Assembly: GCF_036917135.1 (NCBI RefSeq)
Contig: NZ_JBALEA010000089.1
Location: 47,974-111,973, forward strand
From: Nostoc sp.
GTDB taxonomy: Bacteria; Cyanobacteriota; Cyanobacteriia; Cyanobacteriales; Nostocaceae
Direction of reading: 5' to 3'
Length of the DNA stretch: 64,000 bases
Shown: positions 3,037-16,750 of the stretch, one piece after another
Layout: each line of letters starts with the position of its first letter
How positions within the stretch are numbered: position 1 is the stretch's first letter
Program-made: the position numbers and the translations under genes
The notes under the pieces: model-generated
What the model was told of the DNA's origin: nothing
What the model saw: only the letters and a program-made list of their open reading frames with translations
The model's database searches: none

Positions 3037-3507
3037 ATGAATGAGCCTCAGATTCAATTTAGCGAACGCCAGTCTGAAATTGACCTTTACCAACTTCAAG
3101 AACTGTTAAACGTTTCAGCTTTCTGGGCAAAGGGACGTAGTATTGAGGATTTAGGTATAGCCATTGCCAACAGTGAACCAGTGATTTCTGTGTGCGATCG
3201 CGATCGACTCATTGGCTTTGCGAGAGCAACATCTGATGGCATATATCGCGCCACAATTTGGGATGTTGTGATTCATCCAGATTCTCAACATAGTGGGTTG
3301 GGAAGCAAGTTAGTCGAAACCGTTTTGAATCATCCCCGCATGAGGTCGGTTGAGCGCATTTATCTAATGACTACTCACCAACAGGGTTTCTACGAAAAGA
3401 TTGGTTTTCAACCCAACACTACCACGACGATGGTGCTACACAACCTAGCTAACCGTGCTTTCCTTGCTGCTACAGAAGTTCAGCTTCAGGAATCACTAGG
3501 GGGATAG
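3037..3507 (+). CDS. GNAT family N-acetyltransferase
   Basis: [30 protein letters not shown] (acetyl-CoA binding Q/RxxGxG), GFYEKIGF; start set at ATG 3037. Confidence 0.9.
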   Translation: MNEPQIQFSERQSEIDLYQLQELLNVSAFWAKGRSIEDLGIAIANSEPVISVCDRDRLIGFARATSDGIYRATIWDVVIHPDSQHSGLGSKLVETVLNHPRMRSVERIYLMTTHQQGFYEKIGFQPNTTTTMVLHNLANRAFLAATEVQLQESLGG

Positions 3508-4390
3508 AGATTTGTAGTCTGGTAAACTGCTGAAGTGGTTCTTTCACAATGGTCGAGGGCAGGATTTCTAACTTTCCTCCCATAACTTCCATCAAAGTCT
3601 GATTGATTAATAGCCTCATTCCTGGGGAAAGAGCAGCGTTTTCTTGGTCAATTTTGGTCAGATGATCTTCAGATTTGAGCAAATCAATCGGCTCGCTCCA
3701 GGTCATAGCATGGGTTGGTACATCCAGCCAAATGGTTACAAATTTATTTGTACCTATGGCGCTGCTGGAAATACAGATGCTACCTTCCTCCATCTGACTA
3801 ATTGCAGTGTCTATTAAACTTATTAATACTTGGCGCAGCCAAAGATAATCTGCCAAAACATAAATTTCTGGGTCGCTGGGTAACAATTGCAAGGGAAAAT
3901 TGCGATTTGCCGCCAGCATATAAGTTAATTTATGAACTTCCTCTAAAATTTGGGCTAAGGGTCTAGGCTGAATATCTAATTTATTGGTACCATGTTCAGC
4001 TCTTGCAACGTTGAGAATTTCATCCATCAGCTTCAGCAGCTTCAGAGTTCGCTCGTGAGCTTGGGCAATAAATTCTCGCTCTTCAGCTGGATTTTCACAC
4101 AAATCTGACAAAATTAATTGATGTAAGCCAATTAAACCATTAAAAGGCGATCGCAATTCATGGGTAGTTCGTGCCAAAAAACCAGCTTTAAACAGACTCA
4201 TTTCCCTAGCCATCAGATATGCCAGATGGGTTTGCTGTAGCTGTTGTGATATTGATGGCATATCCGGTTGAGCTAATGGCGCTACTGGGGATGAGCTAGA
4301 TGAAACATTTGGCCATCGCCCAAATAACTGACGGAAAACCATACCTAGTGCTATTCCTGCTCCTAGATATATCCAGTTGCTCCAATTCAT
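3470..4390 (-). CDS. hepN: HisKA-domain sensor kinase-like protein, probably the HepN ortholog; ATP-binding boxes look degenerate
   Basis: N-terminal TM helix, H-box THELRSPFNGLIG. The name rests on recalled Anabaena synteny (tic22-hemK-sua5-kinase-secDF) and was not verified by search. Confidence 0.65.
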   Translation of the reverse strand: MNWSNWIYLGAGIALGMVFRQLFGRWPNVSSSSSPVAPLAQPDMPSISQQLQQTHLAYLMAREMSLFKAGFLARTTHELRSPFNGLIGLHQLILSDLCENPAEEREFIAQAHERTLKLLKLMDEILNVARAEHGTNKLDIQPRPLAQILEEVHKLTYMLAANRNFPLQLLPSDPEIYVLADYLWLRQVLISLIDTAISQMEEGSICISSSAIGTNKFVTIWLDVPTHAMTWSEPIDLLKSEDHLTKIDQENAALSPGMRLLINQTLMEVMGGKLEILPSTIVKEPLQQFTRLQISIPLVIPEAELL

Positions 4391-4488: not shown

Positions 4489-5097
4489 CTATACCTTGTT
4501 ATCAGTCGAAATATCTAACTTGATCCCACCTTGCCGCAAAATCTGCCAATTGATCCCTGTCCATTTAGCAACGGTGGAAGGTACACCCATCCCCCGCATT
4601 TCACCTTGGCATTCTGTTGTTGCTAAAGTCAAAACCTGGGGAAACTGAGTCTGAATTTCTGCGATCGTTTGCAAAGGCGGTTGACCGGAAAAATTGGCGC
4701 TAGTGGTAGCAAGAGGGCCTGTTTGAGTCAGAATAGATTGAGCGATCGCACTGTTTGGGACTCGAATCCCAATTGTCGTTGGATCAATAGGGTTCATAAC
4801 TTTTGGCACGCGATCGCTTGCTGGTAAAACTAACGTCACCCCTCCTGGCCAATATTTATCTGTTAATTCTTGCCATATTTTATACTCGTTCTCATCACCT
4901 TTGACATAAGGCCACAAATCTCCAGCATTAGCAGCCATCAAAATCAAAGGTTTGTCTTGACTGCGTTGTTTAGCCGTAAAAATTAATCCGGCTTTTTCTG
5001 GTATCGCCGCAAGTGCAGGAACCGTATCCGTGGGAAAGCTCACCAAAAGGCCGGCCTGTGCGCCAGCTATTAGGTCTGTGAGGGAAACTTGCGTCAT
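4489..5097 (-). CDS. tsaC: L-threonylcarbamoyladenylate synthase (Sua5/YrdC)
   Basis: SFPTDTV, KQRSQDKPL, GIRVP, PLATTSANFSG motifs. Confidence 0.93.
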   Translation of the reverse strand: MTQVSLTDLIAGAQAGLLVSFPTDTVPALAAIPEKAGLIFTAKQRSQDKPLILMAANAGDLWPYVKGDENEYKIWQELTDKYWPGGVTLVLPASDRVPKVMNPIDPTTIGIRVPNSAIAQSILTQTGPLATTSANFSGQPPLQTIAEIQTQFPQVLTLATTECQGEMRGMGVPSTVAKWTGINWQILRQGGIKLDISTDNKV

Positions 5098-5174
5098 CTT
5101 ACTAAGTAAGTCGGGGAGAACAATTTAATATATATTTTGATTTGAGCTTAAATCAAATTCTTGCATAAGTTAGG

Positions 5175-5205
5175 CAAAAGGGAAAAGGAATCAAAATCCT
5201 TTCCC
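5175..5205 (-). terminator. Probable intrinsic terminator downstream of the cluster
   Basis: Minus strand reads GGGAAAGGA-loop-TCCTTTTCCC followed by TTTT. Confidence 0.55.
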
Positions 5206-5309
5206 CCATTTTTGCATAAATATATTTATGCAAGATGTCTAATATTTATCAACCAGTAGCACGGTATTTAATTACTTGGTTAAATCTTGAAAAAGAGATG
5301 CTCAAATAA

Positions 5310-5431
5310 GGGACTTCCAAATAAAAAAATATCCCAAAACTGACGCAAAAATCTTCTCTATTTCTCCTATCTCTGTGTTATCTGCGTCTCTGTGGTTCGT
5401 TCATTTGGATAATTTATTTCTTGAAAGTCCC
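5310..5431. mobile_element. MITE-like element, 122 bp, GGGACT...AGTCCC termini, 3-bp TAA target duplication
   Basis: Imperfect terminal inverted repeats gggacttccaaataaaaaaatatccc / tggataatttatttcttgaaagtccc; TAA at 5307-5309 and 5432-5434. Confidence 0.75.
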
Positions 5432-5468
5432 TAAGAGTCTTATACATCTTCCAAAATTTAGACTAAAA

Positions 5469-6428
5469 TCAGCTAGCAGTTTTTTTCGCTTCAATCATTC
5501 CGAGTGTGGGAACTTTAACATCCCAAGCTAAACCTAATACTTCCAGAGTGTGGATTAACCAGTACCCTAAATCAACTTGCCACCATTGCAACCCAAACTT
5601 TGCCGAGTTAGGAAAAGCATGATGATTATTATGCCATGCTTCTCCTCCTGTAGGAATTGCCAGCCAAACATTATTAGTACTCTGCTCACTACTATTGAAG
5701 GGGCGACTGCCATACAGATGACTAATGGAATTAATAGTCCAAGTTAAATGATGCACTACAAAAATTCGCACAAGTCCTCCCCACAAAAGTCCTTGCCATA
5801 TACCTATCCAAGTACCTGATAAAAGTCCTCCAAGAATAGCTGGAATCAAAAGACCTAAAAAGACCAGAACTAGGTATTGTTGGTTGACTTTTTTTATCAC
5901 AGGGTCTTGCAGCAAATCCTTCGCAAACACTGTAGAATTTGTGATTTCGCAGTTAAGCATCCAACCAATATGGCTATACCATATTCCGTTTAACCTTCCC
6001 CAAAATCCTCCTTGGTGAAGGTTGGGTGAATGAGTATCTCCTATCTGGTCACTGTATTGATGATGGCGCCTATGATTGCTCACCCAATTAATAACAGGTC
6101 CTTGAGCCGCCATAGAACCTAAGATAGCCAAACCAACTCGAACAGATGGGTGGGTTTTAAAAGTGCAGTGAGATAAAACCCGATGAAAACCTACAGTAAT
6201 CCCTCCGACCATAGTGAGAAACCAGAAGACCAAAAGCAATGCTAATTCCATGAGATTAATTCCAAAATCCCAAGCGAATTTGAGCGCTATCATTGTCCCG
6301 ATCAAAGGAATTATGATTGTGGCTATAGCAAAACGCCTTTGTACTTGTTGTAAGTAATCATTTTGGATTATTATCTTTGTTGTTTTACTTAAAGTCGCCA
6401 AACCATGACTTTGATTGTCTAACTGCAT
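5469..6428 (-). CDS. Membrane-bound fatty acyl desaturase A (delta-9-like fold, JamB-like context)
   Basis: His boxes HRVLSH, HRRHH, HNNHH; 319 aa; paralog of 8038-8997. Confidence 0.92.
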   Translation of the reverse strand: MQLDNQSHGLATLSKTTKIIIQNDYLQQVQRRFAIATIIIPLIGTMIALKFAWDFGINLMELALLLVFWFLTMVGGITVGFHRVLSHCTFKTHPSVRVGLAILGSMAAQGPVINWVSNHRRHHQYSDQIGDTHSPNLHQGGFWGRLNGIWYSHIGWMLNCEITNSTVFAKDLLQDPVIKKVNQQYLVLVFLGLLIPAILGGLLSGTWIGIWQGLLWGGLVRIFVVHHLTWTINSISHLYGSRPFNSSEQSTNNVWLAIPTGGEAWHNNHHAFPNSAKFGLQWWQVDLGYWLIHTLEVLGLAWDVKVPTLGMIEAKKTAS

Positions 6429-6484
6429 TAGGTTCTACATCCTCCTTAAATCTTGTCTTCACTATTAACTTCGTACCATTTGGC

Positions 6485-7720
6485 TTAGGTGTAAATGGTG
6501 AAGGGTGGGATTTGTTCGTTGAGTACCCAGTCACCAACTTCGTGGACTTTGTAAACAACTGGATCGTGCAGAGTATGAGTACGGACATTGCGCCAGAAGC
6601 GATCAAAGCGATATTTTGTCGCAGTAGCACGAGTTCCCATCACTTCAAAAATCTTGCTTGTCACTTCTAATGCCACTCGTGTAGTCAAGACTTTGGCAGT
6701 GCTAATAATAACAGCAGTTTCACCGCGTTCGGTGGCTGTCAGGTCTTCTCCCTTTTCCCAGGCAGATTGGAAGACCGAGTTGACATAATCAACATGGCTG
6801 ATGGTTGAAATCAAACTCACCCAGAGATTACCGTATTGCTCAATAATATAAGGATCTTTAGCTGCCGTGTGGGCAGGTGAAAAAATCCAGGGACGGCTTC
6901 CAGATAGTGTATATTGCTTGCCTTCCTCAAAGGCACCTAGTGCAATTCCCAGATAGAAATTGACAAAGACGGACTGGAAAGCAGGAGTTACCAATGAGGC
7001 AAAGGAGCTAGGCGCATCTTTAGAGTTAGGATTGCCCAGAATCTCATCTCGGTGAATCAAGACATTATTAAAAGTGACGCTACCGCTATCGGTTTGTCGC
7101 TGTCCAATGTAATCCCAATCGTCATTGAGAACCACTCCTTCTCGATGGGTGGGAACAATGGCAATGGGAAGATTCTCCACAGCTTCCCGATGCTTGGCAA
7201 CAATGCTAACGGGAAGATTCTCTACATATCCTCGCGCTGCTGTCACTACAATAATGTCGGAGCCAGTACTGCCTGTGGCAAAGTTTTTAGTACCATTGAG
7301 CCGGAAATTTTTTCCATCTGCTGTTAGCACCAATTTAGGATCTCGCGGATTAACAGCATCACCCCAAAACCAGTTGTTGCGAGTAGTTTCGCTGTAGAAT
7401 CGGGCTTTTTGTTCGGGAGTACCATTTAGTTCAGGGATGACAGAATTGACATAGTGGTATCCCAAAAGTTGACCAAGGGAGCCATCCGCTTTGGCAATTT
7501 CTCGTACAACTTTGAGGGCTGTAACCCAACTTTGACCAAATCCACCATATTGTTCTGGGATCAGGAGTTTAAGCAGACCACTTTCTCGCAGACGATTTAG
7601 TTCGGCAGTCGGACTACCACCTTTGGCATCCCGTTCGACTGCTGTTTTAGCAAACTCCTTTCCTAATGACGCAGCTAGAGCAATGTAGTCTTTTGTTTCT
7701 TGTAAGGTAGATAAAACCAT
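6485..7720 (-). CDS. Acyl-CoA dehydrogenase-fold flavin-dependent monooxygenase, DszC/SfnB type
   Basis: DDWDYIGQRQTDSGSV and C-terminal FDRFWRNVRTHTLHDP motifs typical of DszC/SfnB. Start set at ATG 7720 (GGAG 9 nt upstream); the ORF extends to 7735. Confidence 0.85.
   Translation of the reverse strand: MVLSTLQETKDYIALAASLGKEFAKTAVERDAKGGSPTAELNRLRESGLLKLLIPEQYGGFGQSWVTALKVVREIAKADGSLGQLLGYHYVNSVIPELNGTPEQKARFYSETTRNNWFWGDAVNPRDPKLVLTADGKNFRLNGTKNFATGSTGSDIIVVTAARGYVENLPVSIVAKHREAVENLPIAIVPTHREGVVLNDDWDYIGQRQTDSGSVTFNNVLIHRDEILGNPNSKDAPSSFASLVTPAFQSVFVNFYLGIALGAFEEGKQYTLSGSRPWIFSPAHTAAKDPYIIEQYGNLWVSLISTISHVDYVNSVFQSAWEKGEDLTATERGETAVIISTAKVLTTRVALEVTSKIFEVMGTRATATKYRFDRFWRNVRTHTLHDPVVYKVHEVGDWVLNEQIPPFTIYT
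7136..7225 (-). repeat. In-frame 2 x 45-bp tandem duplication inside the monooxygenase
   Basis: VENLPVSIVAKHREA / VENLPIAIVPTHREG, visible at DNA level. Confidence 0.9.
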
Positions 7721-7751
7721 TTTCAGCATCTCCATAAAATTCGTACTAAAA

Positions 7752-8012
7752 CTATTCGCTTAAATGTTGTGCAAGAGATGCGATCGTCGGGTAATCCCAA
7801 ACTAGCCTTAGCTCTAGCTCTTTTCCTAGCCAATCTGCTAAATCTCCGGTTAAAACCACCGCTACCGATGAATCTAAACCATAACGGGCAAAAGTGGTTT
7901 CTACATTTACTTCTTCGGGTTCGATTTCTAGCAAATCTGCTAGATAAGAAATCAACCATTCTTTGATTTCTGTAGTAGATACTTTCAAAGTTTCAGTTTT
8001 TTGAGAAAGCAT
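7752..8012 (-). CDS. Stand-alone acyl carrier protein
   Basis: YGLDS phosphopantetheine Ser motif, DYPTIASLAQHL C-terminus; GGAGG RBS upstream of ATG 8012; 86 aa. Confidence 0.93.
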   Translation of the reverse strand: MLSQKTETLKVSTTEIKEWLISYLADLLEIEPEEVNVETTFARYGLDSSVAVVLTGDLADWLGKELELRLVWDYPTIASLAQHLSE

Positions 8013-8037
8013 ACATCCTCCAAAATTTAGACTAAAA

Positions 8038-8997
8038 TCAGCTAGCAGTTTTTTTCGCTTCAATCATTCCGAGTGTGGGAACTTTAACATCCCAAGCTAA
8101 ACCTAATACTTCCAGAGTGCGGATTAACCAGTACCCTAAATCAACTTGCCACCATTGCAACCCAAACTTTGCTGAGTTAGGAAAAGCATGATGATTGTTA
8201 TGCCATCCTTCTCCTCCTGTAGAAATTGCCAGCCAAACATTATTAGTACTCTGTTCACTAGTATTCAAAGGGCGACTACCATACAGATGAACAATGGAGT
8301 TAAGACACCAAGTTAAATGATGGACTACAAAAATTCGCACAAGCCCTCCCCACAAAAATCCTTGCCCTACACCTATCCAAGTACCTGATAAAAGTCCTCC
8401 AAGAATAGCTGGAATCAAAAGACCTAAAAAAACGAAAATTAGGTATTGTTGATTGACTTTTTTCATCACAGGGTCTTGCAGCAAATCCTTCGCAAACACT
8501 GTAGTATTTGTGATTTCGCCGTTAAGTATCCAGCCAACATGGCTATGCCACATTCCCCTTAACTTTCCCCAAGATTCTCCTTGATAAAGGTTGGGTGAAT
8601 GAGTATCTCCTATCTGGTCGCTATATTGATGATGTCGTCTATGATTGCTCACCCAATTAATCACAGGGCCTTGAGCCGCCATAGAACCCAAGATAGCCAA
8701 AGCAACTCGCACAGATGGGTGGGTCTTAAAAGCACAGTGACATAAAAGCCGATGATTACCTACAGTCACCCCGCCAATCATTGTGAGAAACCAGAAAACC
8801 AAAAGCAGTTCTAATTCCATGAGATTAATTCCAAAATCCCAAGCGAATTTCAGCGCTATCAGTGTCCCGATCAAAGGAATAACGATCGTGGCTGCGGCTA
8901 ACCGCTTTTGTACTGTTTGTAAGTAATCATTTTTGATTGTGATTTTTGCTTCTTTAGTTGAAGTCAACAAAGAAGGATTTTGATTATTTAACTGCAT
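8038..8997 (-). CDS. Membrane-bound fatty acyl desaturase B (delta-9-like fold, JamB-like context)
   Basis: His boxes HRLLCH, HRRHH, HNNHH; 319 aa; directly upstream of the ACP. Confidence 0.92.
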   Translation of the reverse strand: MQLNNQNPSLLTSTKEAKITIKNDYLQTVQKRLAAATIVIPLIGTLIALKFAWDFGINLMELELLLVFWFLTMIGGVTVGNHRLLCHCAFKTHPSVRVALAILGSMAAQGPVINWVSNHRRHHQYSDQIGDTHSPNLYQGESWGKLRGMWHSHVGWILNGEITNTTVFAKDLLQDPVMKKVNQQYLIFVFLGLLIPAILGGLLSGTWIGVGQGFLWGGLVRIFVVHHLTWCLNSIVHLYGSRPLNTSEQSTNNVWLAISTGGEGWHNNHHAFPNSAKFGLQWWQVDLGYWLIRTLEVLGLAWDVKVPTLGMIEAKKTAS

Positions 8998-9029
8998 GAG
9001 CTTTTACATCCTCATTCAATCCTTTAAAA

Positions 9030-10637
9030 TTAGGCTTTTTTACAGAGATATTCATCCAGTTCATCTTCTTCTCCAGCTAAACCTTGCTCGATATCACCAA
9101 TTTTTTCGGCATACTGATTAATCAGACTTTCTACCTGATTAATATCTAGTAAAGTCTGAGCATAGATATTTCCTGTAAGAGCATTAGCTATCTTTGCCTG
9201 AAAATATTGTTGACCCCAATTTTCGACACGTTGTAATTCATCTGTCGGTTCACTTTGATATGACTTTTGTATGCAAGCAACCACAAATGCCCATGCAGCT
9301 ACATCACCCAATTTCTGGGATAATATTTTACTTAATTTCTTATTACTGTTCCCAGAGAGGTTTTTCTTTTTGAGGTAAGAAGCACAAGTTTCAGCCGTCT
9401 GTTGCAATTGTTCGCTGATTTTTGTCGCTCCCAAAAACTCATTAAGAGATGAAAAGACTTGAGGTGTTTGGTATAAAGTTAATAAACCCAAATGCATCTG
9501 TAAAGTTTCAGTTGGCCCCTCAAAAATCCGAAATAAACGAGCATCCCGTAAGATTTGGGGCGCAATATTAGATTCGATATAACCCCGTCCACCTAGTAGC
9601 TGAACTAGATTATCTGCTGCTTGCCACATTAATTCGGGGGCGATAATCTTAGCGACAAGATAAGCTTCTAAAGGAACAGGTTTCTCTTCATCTAGGGATG
9701 TTGCAATGGTTTTCACCAAGCACTCAACTGCACCAATTGCTGCTGTTAAATCACTCAGACGTTGTAAAGTAATCTGTTGATTTATTAGCCGTTCTATACC
9801 AATTGAGCGACGGGTAGCATAACGAAGCATGAGTTGGGCACAATGTTTCATTCCGCCAATACAGGTGGCAGAAATTCCCAATCTCGCTAGTTGCATTGCG
9901 TCCTGGGCTACTTCAAAACCAGAACCAATTTCGCCTAAAACATTTTCATGATTGACTTTTACCTGCTCAAGGTGAATAGTATTCTGAACCATACCTCGCA
10001 TTCCCATCGTCAGAGCTTCAGTACCTTGCCTCAATCCTTGAGCATTTTCGGGAATGGTAAATGCTGTGATTCCCAAAGAGTCGCCTTGTTCATCTACAAC
10101 ATGAGCAAAAATATTGATCGCGCTTGACCAAGATGCAGAACCGCTCCAAATTTTGGTGCCGCTAAGTAACCACCCACCACTTCCATCTGGATGGGCTTCA
10201 GCCTTGATTCCTCTAGGATTAGATCCGGCAGATGGTTCGGTAATGGCAAAGGCTGCTAAATCTCTCCCTTGGGCTAAATTCTGGAGATAGGTTTCTTTAA
10301 TCTCAGGTGTACCATGCTTAAGAATTGGGTAGATTCCGAGAAAATTGTTTACACCAACAAATGAAGCTAAGTTGAGATCAATAGCTGCAAGTTGTTCCAT
10401 CACTTGCAACATATCACTGTAACTTAAGCCAAGACCCCCGCATGATTGAGGCACAATCATTCCCAACAAACCTTTTTTGCCAAAGTCTAGAACGACGTGA
10501 GGAGTTATACACCGTCGCTCGTCCATAAGTCTAGAATTGATTCGTCTTTGGGCATAGTCACGTAACCAATGGATGACTTGCTCTGCACGTTGACGACTTG
10601 AACTTTCTAAAGACTGACTTTGACTATTGAACTGCAT
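9030..10637 (-). CDS. Acyl-CoA/acyl-ACP dehydrogenase
   Basis: AFAITEPSAGSN, LSGTKIWSGS, QLLGGRGY, RIFEGPTE (catalytic Glu position); extended C-terminus. Confidence 0.9.
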   Translation of the reverse strand: MQFNSQSQSLESSSRQRAEQVIHWLRDYAQRRINSRLMDERRCITPHVVLDFGKKGLLGMIVPQSCGGLGLSYSDMLQVMEQLAAIDLNLASFVGVNNFLGIYPILKHGTPEIKETYLQNLAQGRDLAAFAITEPSAGSNPRGIKAEAHPDGSGGWLLSGTKIWSGSASWSSAINIFAHVVDEQGDSLGITAFTIPENAQGLRQGTEALTMGMRGMVQNTIHLEQVKVNHENVLGEIGSGFEVAQDAMQLARLGISATCIGGMKHCAQLMLRYATRRSIGIERLINQQITLQRLSDLTAAIGAVECLVKTIATSLDEEKPVPLEAYLVAKIIAPELMWQAADNLVQLLGGRGYIESNIAPQILRDARLFRIFEGPTETLQMHLGLLTLYQTPQVFSSLNEFLGATKISEQLQQTAETCASYLKKKNLSGNSNKKLSKILSQKLGDVAAWAFVVACIQKSYQSEPTDELQRVENWGQQYFQAKIANALTGNIYAQTLLDINQVESLINQYAEKIGDIEQGLAGEEDELDEYLCKKA

Positions 10638-12489
10638 TAGCTTTTGCGCCCTCCTGAATATTTACTTTTTGAGAATCAGGATTATCTTGCTGCACTTTTA
10701 CTAAGAGTGAGTTGACATCAACTTCCAACTTGTGAAACTGGGCTTGATGCTGAAGAGTTCCACTACAGTGCGCCACCACATTCAAACTGCCATCTAGAAA
10801 CCCACGCCGACAGGCATGACGCTGAATTTTCCCGCTAGATGTCTTGGGAATACTCCCAGGTTTAATTAAAACTGTGGCATACACTTGTAAACCGTGATTA
10901 TCTACAACTGCTTCAGTGATATTGCCGACGACTTCTTGAATATCCAACCGCCTTAAATAGGTTCGTTCTACCTCTTGAACAACAATTAATCGCTGTTGTC
11001 CCTTCTGATCTACAGTGAAAGCTGCTCCACAATGCGATCGCAATGCTGGATGACTTTTTTGCACTGTTAACTCAATATCCTGGGGATAATGATTTTGTCC
11101 TCGGATGATAATCACATCTTTTAGTCGTCCGGTAACAAATAGTTCGCCATCTTGCAAAAATCCCAAGTCACCCGTGCAAAGAAACGGCCCTTCTCCTGTA
11201 TCCCCCAGATAACTTTGAAAAGTTTCCGCAGTTTTTTCTGGTTGGTTCCAATAGCCACCAGCCACAGAAGAACCTGATACCCAAATCTCTCCCACCTTCC
11301 CAGGAGGACACTGAGTTAAAGATTCGCGATCGACAATGACGATTTTTTCATCTAACCAGGTGCGACCACAGCCCACAATTGTTTTAGTTCCTTCCCCAGA
11401 TTCAGCCGCCACCACCTGATTTTCCTCAAGGGCTGCTGCTTCAACTTGGTACAGAATCGGCGAAGCTGTTTTTAAACCTCCAGAAACGAATAAAGTTGCC
11501 TCAGCCATCCCGTAACAGGGATAAAATGCTTCTCGACGGAAACCACAAGGAGCGAAATAGTTAGCAAATAGCTCCATTGTCTCGGCACGGACTGGTTCGG
11601 CTCCATTGAAAGCGACTTCCCAACTGCTTAAATCAAGACTAGAAAGCTGTTCGGGAGTAATCTTGCGAACGCACAAATCGTAAGCAAAATCTGGCCCGCC
11701 GCTAGTAGTGGCTTTGTAACGAGAAATAGCTTGCAACCAGGAAAAAGGCTTTTGCAGGAAAGCTACTGGTGACATCAAAATAGACGGGATACCCAAATAT
11801 AGAGGCTGCAAAACGTTCCCAATCAGACCCATATCGTGGAATAAGGGTAACCAACCGACAAAAATTGTTTTATCTGTATGTCCGAAACCCATTCTGATGG
11901 ATCTCTGGTTGCACAGTAAATTTCCATGAGTGATCATCACTCCCTTCGGCGTTCCCGTAGAGCCTGAAGTGTATTGCAGAAATGCCAGAGTGTCTCTCTC
12001 TAGTCTTGGTTTTTGCCAATCTGAACTGAGATTGCTGTCAATGCAATCAGTATTTAACCAGCGCATAGTTGCCAATTCTGGATTTTCGACCGTTAACAAA
12101 GATTTTGTGGTCAAGACTATCTTGGCTTGGGCATCTTTAGCGATCGCCTGCAACCTGAGCAAGTTCATATTGGCTCGGGGTGGATAAGCGGGAACGGCGA
12201 TAACACCCGCATATAAACAGCCAAAGAAGGCGCTAATGAATTCTAATCCCGGTGGATACAACAGCAAAGCCCGTTCGCCAGGAGATACTAGAGACTGAAG
12301 ATGGGTAGCGAGCGATCGCGCTTGCAGGTCTAATTCTCCATAAGTCAGGCTGTTTTCTTCAGTTTCTCCATCTTTGAGAAATATATAAGCCCTTTGCTGA
12401 GGCTGATTTTTAGCTCTGTAGCTGAGTAATTCTATTAAATTTGAAAATTTGTCAAGAGGGTTTTGGAGATCAGCCAAACAAATAGTCAT
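10624..12489 (-). CDS. Fatty acyl-AMP ligase (FAAL)
   Basis: LQYTSGSTGTPKGV, WLPLFHDMGLIG, YPCYGMAEATL followed by the FAAL-type insertion, GRLKDVIIIRG, PKTSSGKIQR. Confidence 0.93.
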   Translation of the reverse strand: MTICLADLQNPLDKFSNLIELLSYRAKNQPQQRAYIFLKDGETEENSLTYGELDLQARSLATHLQSLVSPGERALLLYPPGLEFISAFFGCLYAGVIAVPAYPPRANMNLLRLQAIAKDAQAKIVLTTKSLLTVENPELATMRWLNTDCIDSNLSSDWQKPRLERDTLAFLQYTSGSTGTPKGVMITHGNLLCNQRSIRMGFGHTDKTIFVGWLPLFHDMGLIGNVLQPLYLGIPSILMSPVAFLQKPFSWLQAISRYKATTSGGPDFAYDLCVRKITPEQLSSLDLSSWEVAFNGAEPVRAETMELFANYFAPCGFRREAFYPCYGMAEATLFVSGGLKTASPILYQVEAAALEENQVVAAESGEGTKTIVGCGRTWLDEKIVIVDRESLTQCPPGKVGEIWVSGSSVAGGYWNQPEKTAETFQSYLGDTGEGPFLCTGDLGFLQDGELFVTGRLKDVIIIRGQNHYPQDIELTVQKSHPALRSHCGAAFTVDQKGQQRLIVVQEVERTYLRRLDIQEVVGNITEAVVDNHGLQVYATVLIKPGSIPKTSSGKIQRHACRRGFLDGSLNVVAHCSGTLQHQAQFHKLEVDVNSLLVKVQQDNPDSQKVNIQEGAKANAVQ

Positions 12490-12579
12490 AAGCCAATTTC
12501 ACAGTTTACACAGTAACGTCATCTGTATGTATGGGTTTGTCAGCTACGAGTCTGTCAATAAATAATTGATAAATTCCCT

Positions 12580-12606
12580 GTAGAGACGGCGATTTTTCGC
12601 GTCTCT
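12580..12606. repeat. GTAG-type REP-like hairpin between the AOS and FAAL genes
   Basis: gtagagacggcgatttttcgcgtctct: GTAG start, stem agagac/gtctct with inner gcga/tcgc. Confidence 0.6.
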
Positions 12607-12621
12607 CTAACCGTCAACGAT

Positions 12622-13986
12622 TTATCGAATGATGCCTAATTCACGATCCAATTTTTGGAAAACGTGAATAAATGTATCTAAATCTTCACGTGTATGGGTT
12701 GCCATGACACTGATTCGGAGTCTTTGGGCATTGAGGGGAACAGCAGGGTACTCGACCGAATTCACAAAGATGCCTTCTTGGTGAAATCTCCAGGCAAGAG
12801 TGCGAATTTCGACTTCAGACGGGATTCTCACTGGTATAATTGCAGAGTCGCTGCTGGTTTGGAATCCTGCCGCTTGCAGTTGCTGCAATAAGTAAGTGCT
12901 ATTGGCTCGAAGTTGACTAACACGCTCCGGCTCCCGCTCAATGATATCTAGACCTGCCAAGATAGCCGCAACAACAGGAGCAGGCAAAGATGCCGAGAAC
13001 ATATAAGACCGAGCAAAGAAGCGCAGATACTCGATTACCTCACGACTGGCAGCGATGAAGCCGCCTGTGACACCCAATGCCTTACTGAAAGTCCCCATCG
13101 TGACATCAATTCGACCTTTCAGACCAAAGTGTTCATCAGTGCCACCGCCCTTTTTACCCATAACACCAGTGCCGTGTGCATCATCCACGACAAGAATAGC
13201 CCCGTAATCGTCGCAAAGTTCACGAATTGCTGGGAGTGCAGCTAAATCGCCATCCATCGAATATACGCCTTCTATAGCCACATAGATTAATCGATTTGAT
13301 GCTCCTCCAACTTGCTTGCATTTGATCAGACGCTGTTCGAGGTCATCACAATCATTATGCTTGAAGCTAAAAGCGCGAACGCTGGAACCCATAGAGACAA
13401 GCTTAATGGCATCATAAAGACTGGCATGGCTTAACTCGTCGCAGATTAAAACATCATCATCACGTAACAGACCATTAACCCACCCTAACTGTGCCTGAAA
13501 TCCACTGGCAAAAAGGAGAGCATCTTCTGCGCCTTTGAACTGGGCTATACGAGCTTCAAGTTGGCGATGGAGGCTACTCATGCCATTGAGTAGAGGTGGT
13601 CCACCCATACCAACACCAAATTCTTCAATAGCTCGTTTTGCTGCTTCTCGAACATAGGGATGGGTGGTCAATCCCAGGTAGTTATTTGATCCGAACATCA
13701 GCATTGACCTGATTTCACCAGTGAGCGGATCTTTAATCAGAGTTCGATTTTCAATCGGCCCAACGACCTCACGAGGAAAATAGGTGAGCATACAGGCATT
13801 GGGACCGATAGAGGCATTTGGTGTATGCAACCAATTAGAGCAAGGTTTCACGCGCTCCGCTAAGGATGAACCAATCGTTGGGAAAAAATCTTTGAAGGAA
13901 AAATTCTCGGCATGGCTGCTGGTATCCGGTGCAACCCATATATTCCTAACATCTTCTGGGAATTTATTAGTCTGTTTACTTAACAT
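12622..13986 (-). CDS. PLP-dependent alpha-oxoamine synthase (serine palmitoyltransferase/BioF/KBL family)
   Basis: MFGSNNYLGL, SHASL, EGVYSMDGD, DDAHG, GTFSKALG (Schiff-base Lys); long N-terminal extension. Confidence 0.92.
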   Translation of the reverse strand: MLSKQTNKFPEDVRNIWVAPDTSSHAENFSFKDFFPTIGSSLAERVKPCSNWLHTPNASIGPNACMLTYFPREVVGPIENRTLIKDPLTGEIRSMLMFGSNNYLGLTTHPYVREAAKRAIEEFGVGMGGPPLLNGMSSLHRQLEARIAQFKGAEDALLFASGFQAQLGWVNGLLRDDDVLICDELSHASLYDAIKLVSMGSSVRAFSFKHNDCDDLEQRLIKCKQVGGASNRLIYVAIEGVYSMDGDLAALPAIRELCDDYGAILVVDDAHGTGVMGKKGGGTDEHFGLKGRIDVTMGTFSKALGVTGGFIAASREVIEYLRFFARSYMFSASLPAPVVAAILAGLDIIEREPERVSQLRANSTYLLQQLQAAGFQTSSDSAIIPVRIPSEVEIRTLAWRFHQEGIFVNSVEYPAVPLNAQRLRISVMATHTREDLDTFIHVFQKLDRELGIIR

Positions 13987-14052
13987 TGTGAACTCTAACC
14001 TAGATTTATTTCTCTGTTTTTAGCAAAGCAAACTAACCGCTTAAGTCTTTTA

Positions 14053-14175
14053 GGGACTTCCAAGAAATAAATTATTCATCTTGTGGGGTGGGCATCCTGC
14101 CCGCCCTGAATATAGGACGGGTGAGGACACCCATCCCACAAGAAAATTTGGGATGTTTTTTTATTTGGAAGTCCC
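14053..14175. mobile_element. MITE-like element, 123 bp, same ends as 5310-5431 but in opposite orientation, TTA target duplication
   Basis: gggacttccaagaaataaatt ... ttttttatttggaagtccc; TTA at 14050-14052 and 14176-14178. Confidence 0.8.
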
Positions 14176-15027
14176 TTAAGCAATAGACCTCTTGTGTGAA
14201 TCAGATTATGAACTGCTCAACAGATAAGTCGCTAGTTTGTGAGTATGCATTTTTTCTAATAGTCAATCGCACAGTTTCATTGCATTTTTTTCACAAAATC
14301 TATATCTACTTTATTGGTGAAGACATTGAGAATAGCAAGCAGTTTTTATCTGAGTAAAGGCTCTCTTAAGACTTTTTTGTGTTTTTTATATGCAGTACTT
14401 TAAAAAGTACTCGCACACCAAGAAAACTGCTCAAAATGATTTCACTAAAGAATGGAAATTAGCAAATAAATATCATCAATTACTTTTTATGTAGAGCAAT
14501 CTTATTTGAAGTGTGAGCATCCTAAAATCAGAGAAAATCAACATTTTCTCGGTTTTTATAAAGCATTTAAGATTGCTGTGTAATATTAATCTAACGAGGA
14601 GTACCAGTTGGCCAATATTGTAACCAATTTTCAACTTTAAACATGATTTTAGCTGGAAGAGAAGACATACAAATAGAAAAGCCCTTCTCTAGTGAAAGAT
14701 TAAGCACTAAAAGTTTTTCCTCTGATCTAAACGTATCAATATCTAAATCTTTTTGGATGTGTTGGAAATCTGGATTAGAGTGAATTTTCAATCCGAGATT
14801 AAAGCTACCACTATTTAGATTTTGTTGTCAATCAACAAAAGCTAAATAAAATGAGTTAAACAAGATGTTTAGATAAAAATATATAGGTAGATATAGATAC
14901 AGAATCTCACTAGATATATCACAAGCACATAAGTTGTTACGACAAATTGCCGATGCAATTGATAATATTAGAGTGATATTGGAATAGCTAAAACAGATGG
15001 AGATAGCCAAATTGAGTAAGGGAAACC

Positions 15028-15918
15028 CTAACTTCTATAAGCTAGGGCGAAGCGTTCAATTCCAGCTAAATCAGCGTGAATTTGAATATTGCAATAATTA
15101 CCTTGATTTTGCAAAAGTTCTCGCACTCCATCGGCCTGTCCAGCCATCATCTCAATCAGCCACACGCCACCCGATCGCAAATAACTAGGTGAAATTTCTA
15201 CCAAATTCCGAATGCAATCTAAGCCATCAGCGCCACCATCCAAAGCTAGATGCGGTTCATGGTTAACTACTTCTGGCTGCAAAGTAGGTAAGATGCTGGT
15301 GGGGATGTAAGGAGGGTTGGAAACCATACCACTGAACTGACCTTTTAACAATGCCAGTGGCTCCCACCAGGAACCTTGATAAAATTTAATCCGGTCAGCA
15401 AAACCCAAATCATCGGCGTTGGCTTGGGCGATCGCCAGAGCTGCTAAACTGTAATCCACTGCATGAATTGTTGCGTTTGGCAAGGCATCTGCTAATCCGA
15501 TGGCGATCGCACCACTCCCAGTACCCAAATCCGCCCAATGTCCTGAAGCATTTGCGAACAATGCTTTCGCCAAATCAATTAAGCACTCTGTCTCTGGTCT
15601 GGGAATCAAAACCGCACTCGACACCGCAATTTTAAAATTACGCCAAGGTGTAACACCCGCAATATACTGCACTGGTAAGCGATCGTTTAATCGCCTCTGC
15701 CAAAGATGGTCTAACTCTACTAGAGGCAATTGCATCTGAATTTGCGGCGAGTTTTTAAAAGACTCCAAACGTAGTGCCAAGCGGTCTAATCCAGCCACCT
15801 CTATAAGTAGCCAGTCTACCTCCCTTGGTGGAACATCAGTGGCGATCGCTGCTTGGATAGCTACATTTCGCCACTGCCAAAGTTGTAAACCAGAAACTAT
15901 CAGATGTTTCTCTTCCAT
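15028..15918 (-). CDS. prmC: Release factor glutamine methyltransferase (HemK)
   Basis: PVQYIAG, LIPRPETE, DLGTGSGAIA, SNPPY, LALDGGADGL. Confidence 0.96.
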   Translation of the reverse strand: MEEKHLIVSGLQLWQWRNVAIQAAIATDVPPREVDWLLIEVAGLDRLALRLESFKNSPQIQMQLPLVELDHLWQRRLNDRLPVQYIAGVTPWRNFKIAVSSAVLIPRPETECLIDLAKALFANASGHWADLGTGSGAIAIGLADALPNATIHAVDYSLAALAIAQANADDLGFADRIKFYQGSWWEPLALLKGQFSGMVSNPPYIPTSILPTLQPEVVNHEPHLALDGGADGLDCIRNLVEISPSYLRSGGVWLIEMMAGQADGVRELLQNQGNYCNIQIHADLAGIERFALAYRS

Positions 15919-15943
15919 ACCTCAACCTTGGAGCGCCTATCCG

Positions 15944-16750
15944 TTATTTTTTCGGAGCGACCGCAGGAGCTGGTGATTGATTTGGCGCAAGGGAGCGAAT
16001 AAAATTGATCGACTCCCGCGATGGATACAGAACAATTTTATTTATACTAGGATCGTTGCTGCTATTGAGAGCCTCTAGAACACCGTACAAATCCACCACT
16101 TGAATTTCAGTGTTTTCTGCTTCCTTTGGCACAGCTTTTTTGAATTGGTCTAACAGAGCCACTGCTTGTTCTTTCTCAAAAAAGAAAGGGATGTAGCGCT
16201 CGTTGCCTTTGGCGAGGGGAATAGTCAGATAGCTATTATCTTTCTTAAATTTCGGTACAAATAAGGGAATACCATTGAATTGCTCCCCTTTTTTACCATT
16301 CTGATTCAGCATACTAGTTGCCGATGCTACCTGTTCTTGCGTCGGCACTAAAGTATAAATCACAGAATCTGGTTTCTTTTTGCTTTCTTGCACTATTTTA
16401 AAGTAGTCTGCCAAAGACAAAGGTCTCACCTGTAGGGTACTTGCCAACTGGGGATTTTCTTTTTTGAGCCGATTGTCAAGGAATTTTTGAGCATCTTGCT
16501 TGCTAATAAAAAATCCCACTTGGGAGATCGTCTTGGATTCGTTTTTCCTCGAAAGAACTACGAATTCGCCTTTAGGATTGGTGAGGGTGAATACAGGTAC
16601 TTCTTGGAGCTTTTTCACTATCTGATCTTGTGGCAATGCGATCGCCTCTAGATTGCCCATCCCTGGTAGATTGCCTATTCCTGAAAGCCCCGTTAAAAAT
16701 ACACTGGTAGCTATACCCAATGTTGCGCCCAAGCGAATAAATGATTTCAT
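15944..16750 (-). CDS. tic22: Tic22 family periplasmic chaperone
   Basis: Signal-like N-terminus, KLQEVPVFTLTN, FNGIPLF, IPFFFEKEQ; ATG 16750 preceded by AGGAG. Confidence 0.88.
   Translation of the reverse strand: MKSFIRLGATLGIATSVFLTGLSGIGNLPGMGNLEAIALPQDQIVKKLQEVPVFTLTNPKGEFVVLSRKNESKTISQVGFFISKQDAQKFLDNRLKKENPQLASTLQVRPLSLADYFKIVQESKKKPDSVIYTLVPTQEQVASATSMLNQNGKKGEQFNGIPLFVPKFKKDNSYLTIPLAKGNERYIPFFFEKEQAVALLDQFKKAVPKEAENTEIQVVDLYGVLEALNSSNDPSINKIVLYPSRESINFIRSLAPNQSPAPAVAPKK

Follow-up and report, generated by a model that had tools for sequence, protein, structure and literature searches.

A Nostoc genomic island with a candidate thiotemplated pathway to an unsaturated alpha-amino-ketone lipid

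In Caulobacter and Rhodobacteria, entry to bacterial sphingolipid synthesis is provided by AasR-AcpR-Spt (PMC9386255), in which an adenylated fatty acid, a dedicated acyl carrier protein (ACP) and an SPT-like alpha-oxoamine synthase (AOS) bring about condensation with an amino acid. The same logic occurs in another cyanobacterial genus as a fused protein (L152) joining a fatty acyl-AMP ligase (FAAL), an ACP and an AOS. The noc-cly loci of Nodularia and Sphaerospermopsis, which specify chlorosphaerolactylates and nocuolactylates, also include a stand-alone FAAL: ClyA loads mainly dodecanoic acid on the discrete carrier ClyB, and NocC desaturates C6-C12 acyl-ClyB in vitro (PMC9486936). The resulting acyl-ACP goes to CylC-type halogenases, a PKS and an NRPS-like module. 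FAAL, membrane desaturase and ACP genes are likewise co-located in the JamABC and TtuABC terminal-alkyne cassettes ('alkyne cassette'; Mullins et al., PMC8406139), while the polyyne clusters cay, pgn and ccn combine FAAL and ACP with multiple membrane desaturases that modify the fatty acid on its carrier, and are defined by a desaturase triad, a thioesterase and a rubredoxin (PMC8406139).

A genomic island of Nostoc sp. assembles enzymes of these familiar kinds in a combination that is undescribed. The literature searched contained no paper describing its gene set, in keeping with the initial annotation, which knew of no such pathway. The biosynthetic logic put forward there holds in outline, with the amendments that the conserved unit comprises five genes and that FAAL-ACP-AOS logic is already known from AasR-AcpR-Spt (PMC9386255) and the fused cyanobacterial protein.

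The island shares with noc-cly the stand-alone FAAL gene, the 14-bp overlap with the following acyl-ACP dehydrogenase (ACAD) gene and the discrete ACP, but its membrane desaturases are encoded between ACAD and ACP, an AOS gene precedes that of the FAAL, and halogenases and megasynthases are absent. Compared with JamABC and TtuABC, it has an inserted ACAD and no PKS/NRPS acceptor, and the likeness derives from the cassette genes, JamB-clade membership aside. The triad, thioesterase and rubredoxin of the polyyne clusters are all absent; a polyyne-type triad is ruled out, the island having two 84%-identical duplicates of one desaturase type. Unlike AasR-AcpR-Spt and the fused form, it has an AOS of another subfamily, scoring under the SPT cut-offs, which would act after on-carrier dehydrogenation and desaturation, and it lacks a ceramide synthase and keto-reductase. 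For the loading and tailoring genes, the nearest counterpart in architecture is a locus of Moorea sp. SIOASIH (L146), where FAAL, ACAD, two desaturases and ACP occur in the same order, again followed by a flavin monooxygenase (ACAD 73%, FAAL 66% and desaturases 56-58% identical). No characterisation of this Moorea locus was found. It primes a giant PKS, has an FMO-type monooxygenase in place of a DszC-type one, and lacks an AOS.

The window analysed is a 64,000-nucleotide stretch of contig NZ_JBALEA010000089.1, in which the island occupies positions 5101-15026 (9.9 kb, no strand assigned). Its boundaries were set by empty-site comparison. The left flank is prmC, encoding the release-factor glutamine methyltransferase (15028-15918, minus strand; TIGR03534, 222 bits, above cut-off), and the right flank is a sua5/tsaC-family gene (4489-5097, minus strand; PF01300, E=1.2e-37), both outside the island. 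These two genes directly neighbour each other, separated by roughly 15-200 bp, in nine Nostoc genomes that lack the cluster and in two of the three genomes compared from other families of cyanobacteria. Empty-site homology ends at 15027 and starts again at 5100. The gene set is thus an inserted accessory genomic island.

All seven of its open reading frames lie on the minus strand and none contains an internal stop. From the AOS gene to that of desaturase 2 the intergenic distances are 132, -14 (an overlap), 32, 25, 16 and 56 bp, and the tight packing initially described (gaps of at most 132 bp, one 14-bp overlap) agrees with these coordinates. Pfam and NCBIfam confirm the family of every gene, and the catalytic residues and motifs of the island enzymes in the window are kept. 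The reported absence of KS, NRPS, thioesterase, reductase, transporter and regulator genes was borne out, none being found within 5101-15026. In four comparisons within Nostoc and one with a distant copy, the enzymes had dN/dS values of 0.09-0.30, and the short ACP reached 0.59, resembling the housekeeping flanks; purifying selection acts on all seven genes.

The AOS is present in 10 of 127 Nostoc species genomes; the photosynthetic cyanobacteria sampled outside Nostoc lack it, save for one distant fused form. A chance arrangement is excluded because the gene order recurs in nine other Nostoc genomes and on one unrelated metagenome scaffold. Natural versions of the island contain five, six, seven or nine genes. 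The core of AOS, FAAL, ACAD, desaturase and ACP is retained in all nine readable Nostoc islands, whereas the DszC-like oxygenase is missing from five-gene islands and desaturase 2 from both five- and six-gene islands. These two genes are a variable, optional tail, so the seven-gene set, originally treated as the unit, describes the version in this window, and the conserved unit across islands is one of five. Some copies are decaying: the FAAL gene is split in L004, L124 retains just fragments of its ACAD gene, and L135 is down to remnants. Strains can therefore dispense with the pathway, and in some of them it may be inactive. Taken together, the patchy occurrence and the decay point to a specialised metabolite or signal rather than a core membrane lipid.

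The loading enzymes are close homologues of those of the noc-cly system. The FAAL (621 aa; 10624-12489, minus strand; PF00501 and PF23024, with FAAL families as top NCBIfam matches) is 79% identical to the stand-alone, ClyA-position FAAL adjoining nocC in the noc/cly locus of Nodularia sp. HBU26, which has the same 14-bp FAAL-ACAD gene overlap. The discrete ACP (86 aa; 7752-8012, minus strand; PF00550, E=5.8e-17) carries a GLDSS phosphopantetheine-attachment motif and is 67% identical to the ClyB-position ACP beside NocC (L145). The program-made ORF list instead has an entry at 7723-7959, which is in a different frame and matches no family. Homology to these closest named relatives supports the initial view that the FAAL charges a dedicated ACP. 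A preference for C12 is probable, 79% identity to ClyA being no guarantee of it.

The NocC-type dehydrogenase (535 aa; 9030-10637, minus strand) consists of an ACAD fold, covered by three ACAD Pfam domains, and a C-terminal extension. Its identity to NocC of Nodularia sp. HBU26 is 81%. Among solved structures it comes closest to the VLCAD/ACAD9 type, and its FEGPTE motif contains the catalytic Glu373. Fusion to an ACP or FAAL domain is common among the homologues, which suggests that the enzyme works on carrier-bound acyl chains. Desaturation of an acyl-ACP, as first proposed, thus has the backing of a family tested in vitro (PMC9486936). NocC is a better model for the enzyme than the tambjamine TamT-type precedent first invoked.

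Desaturase 1 (319 aa; 8038-8997, minus strand; PF00487) belongs to the conserved core and has the His boxes HRLLCH, HRRHH and HNNHH. The accessory desaturase 2 (319 aa; 5469-6428, minus strand) is 84% identical to it and shares its clade with 100/100 support, and is a recent, island-specific duplicate. Desaturase 1 is 50-60% identical to the desaturases of cyanobacterial FAAL-desaturase-ACP cassettes, one of which (L111) feeds a type I PKS, as does the Moorea cassette a PKS of its own. In the tree, the island desaturases cluster with this FAAL/ACP-cassette clade, apart from housekeeping DesC-like desaturases, upholding their assignment to the JamABC-style, FAAL/ACP-linked kind. The tree contained neither JamB nor TtuB, so support for alkyne formation extends no further than cassette architecture.

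The proposed off-loading condensation enzyme is the AOS (454 aa; 12622-13986, minus strand; PF00155, E=1.4e-53). Its best NCBIfam models, SPT-CFB, Kbl and BioF, each score under cut-off, and its best solved relative is the S. multivorum SPT (271 bits). The PLP lysine Lys302 (in GTFSKALG), His187 and Asp269/His272 are present. The subfamily is marked by 'GGPPLLNG' where SPT has 'AGSRFLNG', with 'GPP' replacing the 'GSR' region, and it adjoins DAGK-type lipid kinases in four phyla, neighbours that point to a lipid context. With every catalytic residue kept, and as the sole possible off-loading enzyme in the island, the AOS fits the releasing role it had been given.

The accessory oxygenase (416 aa; 6485-7735, minus strand) is a DszC/MsuC/SfnB-type two-component flavin monooxygenase, to which the NCBIfam model for DszC assigns 385 bits (cut-off 850). 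It shares the ACAD fold of these enzymes, and its closest relatives reside in sulfur-scavenging loci, but it falls under every curated cut-off, is extended by about 20 residues at the N-terminus and belongs to a lipid pathway that has neither a reductase nor a sulfur gene close by. AOS and oxygenase both lie under every curated equivalog cut-off; their substrates are therefore not readable from homology.

The island probably encodes a small thiotemplated route to an unsaturated alpha-amino-ketone lipid. By homology to enzymes tested in vitro, the FAAL would adenylate a free fatty acid, probably medium-chain (~C12), and transfer it to the dedicated ACP, whereupon the NocC-type ACAD would dehydrogenate the acyl-ACP near the thioester. 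The membrane desaturase (two in the version of this window) would, presumably afterwards, add unsaturation farther along the chain, as an alkene or alkyne. The PLP-dependent AOS would then catalyze decarboxylative Claisen condensation of the acyl-ACP with an amino acid, taking the chain off the carrier as a 2-amino-3-keto lipid, which would account for the pathway needing no thioesterase, reductase or PKS/NRPS. Such use of an acyl-ACP has precedents in AasR-AcpR-Spt (PMC9386255) and the fused cyanobacterial FAAL-ACP-AOS. In six-, seven- and nine-gene versions the DszC-type enzyme may then oxygenate the product, with a reductase encoded elsewhere.

A narrower version of this scheme, which appears unlikely, makes the product a sulfur-bearing amino-lipid. 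The AOS would join the acyl-ACP to a sulfur amino acid such as cysteine, S-methylcysteine, methionine or cysteine sulfinate, and the oxygenase would oxidise the sulfur as far as sulfoxide, sulfone or sulfonate; the head group would then be capnine-like or new. The AOS active-site region is indeed unlike that of serine-using SPT, and the best solved relatives of the oxygenase are the methanesulfinate monooxygenase MsuC (344 bits) and DszC (342 bits). Its clade is nested, on short branches, among cyanobacterial enzymes of 395-396 aa (63-78% identity). Of the five genomic contexts examined for these enzymes, four are loci for organosulfur scavenging, which encode luciferase-like monooxygenases, TauD, SsuA-like binding proteins and FMN reductases. 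However, ACAD-fold flavin oxygenases also catalyze N- and C-oxygenations, five-gene islands show the oxygenase to be unneeded for the core product, the island has no sulfur-metabolism genes, and the AOS is nearer SPT (271 bits) than cysteate-C-fatty acyltransferase (193 bits).

That proximity to SPT, the closest family among both solved and curated ones, would also suit a structural, sphingolipid-like membrane lipid, made by a cyanobacterial counterpart of the ceramide entry through Spt, ACP and acyl-ACP synthetase. The FAAL-ACP-AOS logic equals that of AasR-AcpR-Spt (PMC9386255), and the AOS subfamily is found with lipid kinases elsewhere. This is a rather improbable reading of an island that decays, varies in gene content, is carried by so few Nostoc genomes, has an AOS that the other cyanobacteria sampled lack apart from the distant fused form, and encodes neither a ceramide synthase nor a 3-keto reductase or kinase. 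Moreover, the FAAL is nearest a C12-preferring enzyme, whose chain is short for a membrane anchor (PMC9486936).

Another candidate product is a diffusible alpha-amino- or alpha-hydroxy-ketone signal of the CAI-1/LAI-1 type, serving Nostoc cell-cell or symbiotic communication. CAI-1 and LAI-1 fall in the C13-C15 range, the size of amino-ketone predicted from a C12-type FAAL and an AOS, and the patchy, accessory distribution is compatible with such a role. Similarity of the AOS to the CqsA/LqsA family (187 bits) is nevertheless far under that to SPT or Kbl (365-371 bits; NCBIfam models), CqsA-type enzymes take acyl-CoA and require no desaturases, and a cognate sensor kinase is missing from the island (empty sites, too, have the histidine kinase at 3470-4390); a signal of this type is very unlikely. 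Least probable is a decaying relic without present function, as the deletion series and remnants in related genomes might imply, given that in the window all seven frames are intact, catalytic motifs are kept and dN/dS is like that of the flanks.

Upstream of the AOS gene lies an AT-rich non-coding leader of about 1 kb (13987-15027, minus strand; GC 0.32). It has no Rfam family match and no convincing consensus structure, and contains no ORF conserved across orthologous islands, the orthologous leaders containing stops. Blocks of its DNA are conserved in every island copy, including L124 despite its different genomic context; the leader travels with the island.

The genomic insert between prmC and sua5 represents known thiotemplated fatty-acid logic in a new combination, where a ClyA/NocC/ClyB-type trio and a JamB-style desaturase are coupled to off-loading by an alpha-oxoamine synthase (AOS) of an uncharacterised subfamily, with an oxygenase derived from sulfur scavenging as an optional part. 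ORF calling recovers seven intact genes, all on the minus strand and spanning 5469-13986. These encode the AOS (12622-13986), a fatty acyl-AMP ligase (FAAL; 10624-12489), a 535-aa protein of the ACAD fold (9030-10637), membrane desaturase 1 (8038-8997), an 86-aa acyl carrier protein (ACP) with a GLDSS motif (7752-8012; PF00550, E = 5.8e-17), a DszC-like flavin monooxygenase (6485-7735), and membrane desaturase 2 (5469-6428), the ACP being assigned with Pfam and the others with both Pfam and NCBIfam. Their gaps of 132, -14, 32, 25, 16, and 56 bp match exactly the tight packing described in the initial annotation. A mechanically listed ORF at 7723-7959 matches no family and is rejected as the carrier protein, which is encoded in the 7752-8012 frame. 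No paper describing a gene set of AOS, FAAL, ACAD, desaturase, and ACP was found in the literature searched.

In the proposed pathway, the FAAL would load a fatty acid, probably of about C12, onto the ACP, and the ACAD, as a NocC-type enzyme, would work on the carrier-bound chain together with the membrane desaturase(s). The AOS would then join the acyl-ACP to an amino acid with loss of CO2, releasing a 2-amino-3-keto lipid that the oxygenase would tailor in the longer island versions. Release of the chain by the AOS would account for the missing thioesterase, reductase, and megasynthase. The general mechanism of loading, oxidation on the carrier, and off-loading by the AOS is moderately favoured. 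Within it, the chain length, the order of oxidation, the choice of alkene or alkyne, the amino acid, and the site of oxygenation are inferred.

The FAAL combines an AMP-binding domain (PF00501) with a FAAL-type C-terminal domain (PF23024). Its best NCBIfam matches, all below their cut-offs, are FAAL families, and its closest relatives are ACP-loading FAALs, which together place it among the predicted FAALs. It is 79% identical to the FAAL at the ClyA position of the noc/cly locus of Nodularia sp. HBU26 (L145). Over all of its 535 aa, the ACAD shares 81% identity with NocC of the same strain, and it carries a catalytic Glu373 within FEGPTE; many of its homologues have fused ACP or FAAL domains. 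In the Nodularia locus, the stand-alone FAAL overlaps nocC by 14 bp, as in the window, and a discrete ACP follows that is 67% identical to the window ACP. Fold, glutamate, C-terminal extension, homology, and linkage to FAAL and ACP all point to a NocC-type acyl-ACP dehydrogenase. For the orthologous system, ClyA was found to load ClyB chiefly with dodecanoic acid, and NocC to desaturate C6-C12 acyl-ClyB in vitro (PMC9486936). The loading step and the ACAD step on the carrier are thus modelled on close, tested homologues, and the kinship to ClyA and NocC hints at a medium-chain substrate.

The likeness to noc/cly is limited to the ClyA-position FAAL, NocC, and the adjacent ACP. In contrast to the island, the Nodularia locus contains a halogenase, PKS, NRPS, the NocG ketosynthase, the NocH FAAL-ACP, and a class-III aminotransferase, and none of CylC-type halogenases, PKS/NRPS, NocG, NocH, or a class-III aminotransferase is encoded in the island. 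The island is consequently neither a nocuolin A cluster, which is defined by NocG, NocH, and the aminotransferase and has no AOS or desaturase, nor a cly cluster, given the missing CylC-type halogenases and PKS/NRPS. A different partial likeness is found in Moorea sp. SIOASIH (L146, 8117-21617), where FAAL-ACAD-desaturase-desaturase-ACP genes stand in the same order as here and form the same tailoring cassette, the ACAD being 73% identical. There, however, an FMO comes next and then a PKS (more than 4690 aa), so that the cassette feeds a megasynthase, whereas the island has no PKS.

Both window desaturases possess three His boxes. They are 84% identical to each other and form a single clade with 100/100 support, which indicates an island-specific duplication. 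The FAAL, desaturase, and ACP genes lie within 5 kb on one strand, and the island accordingly holds a JamABC-type 'alkyne cassette' under the operational definition of Mullins et al., that is, a co-located FAAL, membrane desaturase, and ACP (PMC8406139). The island desaturases are 50-60% identical to those of cyanobacterial FAAL-desaturase(s)-ACP cassettes (L111-L117), one of which (L111) sits before a methyltransferase and a type I PKS. In a tree built without JamB and TtuB, the cassette desaturases constitute a clade apart from DesC-like housekeeping enzymes; the island desaturases may form either alkenes or alkynes. The initial annotation had proposed an amino-ketone lipid with an ene, enyne, or diyne chain. 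Its outline stands, and the enyne/diyne chemistry is over-specific. A polyyne cluster is rejected. Bacterial polyyne clusters are marked by a desaturase triad of different types together with thioesterase and rubredoxin genes, whereas the island has just its two near-duplicates, and neither a thioesterase nor a rubredoxin was found among the ORFs and Pfam matches of 5101-15026.

A polyyne-like array does occur in two other Nostocaceae (L113, 7688-14542; L112, 305-6877), in which four tandem membrane desaturases accompany a FAAL, an ACP, and a DUF302 protein; none of the ORFs called there is a thioesterase or rubredoxin, the Pfam scan at the array covering the DUF302 protein only. One desaturase type of this array is nearly identical to the third desaturase (15391-16344) of a nine-gene island copy in another Nostoc (L118). 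In the desaturase tree, this third enzyme falls in a separate clade common to the four-desaturase arrays of other Nostocaceae.

The AOS matches PF00155 (E = 1.4e-53), and alignment to the serine palmitoyltransferase (SPT) of S. multivorum locates the PLP lysine, Lys302, in GTFSKALG, His187 in SHASL, and Asp269/His272 in DDAHGTG. These residues of the AONS/SPT/Kbl/ALAS group support its predicted membership in the fold-type I PLP-dependent AOS superfamily. Among solved structures, the S. multivorum SPT is nearest (271 bits), ThAOS and Kbl are slightly further, and cysteate acyltransferase is much further (193 bits). The AOS is nonetheless rejected as a curated SPT equivalog, as it scores below the cut-offs of all the curated SPT models (371 bits against 640 for NF047600, 325 against 500, and 250 against 670) and reads GGPPLLNG where SPT reads AGSRFLNG, so that the SPT-type 'G-S-R' before LNG is missing. 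A CqsA/LqsA autoinducer synthase is dismissed by its NF005526 score of 187 bits against a cut-off of 428. The AOS in fact falls under every curated NCBIfam cut-off. Its 'GPP' segment differs from that of SPT, yet motifs do not map it to an amino-acid substrate.

The GGPPLLNG segment is common to nearly all of the best 80 genomic relatives of the AOS (41-60% identity), which come from Bdellovibrionota, Ignavibacteriota, Bacteroidota, and Nocardia. Across these 80 loci, the other island genes are present in the Nostoc copies only. The non-Nostoc genes have no desaturase, ACAD, or ACP alongside, and the Nocardia loci include a distant AMP-binding gene (35-38% identity). Instead, the subfamily recurs beside a lipid kinase of the DAGK type together with an AIR-synthase-related protein, and PPDK-like, NTP_transf_5, and HAD genes are frequent additions. 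Examples are found on a Logan metagenome contig (L149, 912-10368) and in L006 (1133-4543), L014 (6101-9535), and L010 (71-14358), which represent Bdellovibrionales, Ignavibacteriota, and Nocardia. None of the homologues bears a name from a characterised pathway, and the combination of a GGPPLLNG AOS with a lipid kinase looks like an undescribed phospho-amino-lipid pathway.

The use of acyl-ACP by an AOS has precedent in the AasR-AcpR-Spt system (PMC9386255). A second precedent is a fused FAAL-ACP-AOS protein of 1094 aa in the small genome of another cyanobacterial genus (L152, 3833-11041). After the fused gene come an SDR, another FAAL, and a glycosyltransferase of the GT4 type, making this locus a candidate for a glycosylated sphingoid-type lipid pathway in cyanobacteria. 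To our knowledge, no sphingoid-type lipids are known from cyanobacteria. Within the Nostoc island, the ORFs and Pfam matches include neither a bCerS ceramide synthase nor a CerR ceramide reductase, the two enzymes that accompany Spt in the bacterial ceramide pathway.

The oxygenase is clearly akin to DszC, MsuC, and SfnB at the family level; it does not reach a curated equivalog (385 bits against a cut-off of 850 for DszC, 281 against 431 for SfnB), and its substrate is not assignable. Among solved structures, it is closest to MsuC, a methanesulfinate monooxygenase (344 bits), and to DszC (342 bits). With a short stem, its clade branches from within cyanobacterial proteins of 395-396 aa (63-78% identity), and four of the five contexts examined for these relatives are organosulfur-scavenging loci, the fifth being unclear. 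Besides another ACAD-like gene, the scavenging loci include luciferase-like monooxygenases, TauD, binding proteins of the SsuA type, ABC transporters, and FMN reductases. The island itself has no gene for a flavin reductase. Given this ancestry, oxidation of a sulfur-bearing head group is a real possibility. Elsewhere in the same genome, three more DszC-like paralogues (51%, 51%, and 31% identity) occur on contigs C35 (70836-76842) and C91 (149181-150350) and are probably its sulfur-scavenging copies.

The seven genes are flanked by prmC upstream (15028-15918) and a sua5/tsaC-family gene downstream (4489-5097). Where the cluster is lacking, prmC lies next to sua5, across spacers of about 70-200 bp in nine Nostoc genomes and of 15-72 bp in two of the three genomes drawn from other cyanobacterial families. 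Homology to the empty site stops at window position 15027 and picks up again at 5100, which delimits an insert of about 9.9 kb (5101-15026); no target-site duplication, mobility gene, or integrase was found at its edges. The AOS is present at 89% identity or more in 10 of 127 Nostoc species-representative genomes. Across 401 sampled genomes of the phylum, the only further matches are homologues with 51-54% identity, from three genomes belonging to the most distant of the sampled families, and, in a single other genus, a distant fused form. Inserted between otherwise adjacent genes and patchily distributed, the locus is a genomic island. The nearest public copies are Nostoc MAGs. A 3-kb contig from an 'uncultured Acetobacteraceae' MAG (CAZZZY010000865.1) carries an AOS 88% identical to that of the window and is probably a mis-binned Nostoc contig.

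Every Nostoc copy occupies the prmC-sua5 site, with varying gene content. The seven-gene version (AOS-FAAL-ACAD-desaturase-ACP-oxygenase-desaturase) is shared by the window and two further loci (L001, L004). The nine-gene version of L118 has one more ACP as well as a third desaturase, a six-gene version is missing the second desaturase (L127, L128), and a five-gene version consists of AOS-FAAL-ACAD-desaturase-ACP only (L129, L130, L131), followed in L131 by an unrelated CARDB/calpain gene. The constant unit is therefore AOS-FAAL-ACAD-desaturase-ACP, and the oxygenase and extra desaturases make up a variable tail; five-gene islands without the oxygenase place it outside the core chemistry. Some copies are damaged. 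The FAAL of L004 falls in two separate frames, with about 150 extra bases (11430-13495), reflecting either a pseudogene or an assembly error. L135 is a decayed copy that retains at the prmC site only fragments of the FAAL (residues 265-422), desaturase (26-83), and oxygenase (340-416) at 3312-4202. A metagenome scaffold (L124) has the seven-gene order in another genomic context, with AbiE and CHAT genes as flanks; of its ACAD, two fragments are left (residues 241-291 and 471-534; 5728-6080). One further Nostoc genome has prmC without sua5 within 7 kb (L132, 1-7000); other ORFs follow instead, so the prmC site may accept other inserts.

Compared with five orthologous copies, the enzymes have dN/dS values of 0.09-0.30, similar to prmC and sua5, and synonymous divergence of the island is about that of its flanks. 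These values speak for purifying selection and for largely vertical descent in which the island was lost repeatedly. Its patchy occurrence, its status as an island, and its decay make an accessory metabolite more likely than a core membrane lipid.

If it is expressed, the island should give a new cyanobacterial amino-lipid. Its AOS could provide a new way of off-loading, releasing carrier-bound fatty acids tailored by NocC-type dehydrogenases and JamB-type desaturases instead of handing them over to PKS/NRPS. Five genes would then make up a compact pathway whose amino-ketones are functionalised and possibly clickable. The Nostoc deletion series would make gene content directly comparable with product structure. 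The island also provides an entry to the large uncharacterised GGPPLLNG subfamily and its lipid-kinase operons in Bdellovibrionota, Ignavibacteriota, Bacteroidota, and Nocardia. It is one orphan cluster among many and overturns no concept. A bolder and improbable reading is an unseen class of medium-chain acetylenic or polyunsaturated alpha-amino-ketones or amino-alcohols, whose head group would derive from a non-serine, possibly sulfur-containing, amino acid selected by the GGPPLLNG AOS and would then be oxidised by the oxygenase. Were it true, the compound could be a diffusible signal or toxin in Nostoc, and the five-, six-, seven-, and nine-gene versions would form a ready-made structure series.

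The island also contains a 1-kb AT-rich leader that is non-coding and partly conserved even in the L124 copy. Searches of the leader found no small protein, regulator, or riboswitch, its ORFs not being conserved, nor any Rfam family or covarying structure before the AOS start codon, and promoter and terminator scans, with fewer matches than in shuffled sequence, gave no useful consensus. An inverted repeat of about 65 nt (14079-14143) matches an animal microRNA model of Rfam on each strand, in neither case reaching the gathering score; the match is spurious, and the element is most likely a palindromic dispersed repeat rather than a gene. Just ahead of the AOS start codon, a segment of about 65 nt (13987-14055) shows 85-97% conservation across every island copy, that in the foreign context included. 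This segment is a candidate for a promoter or 5' UTR element.
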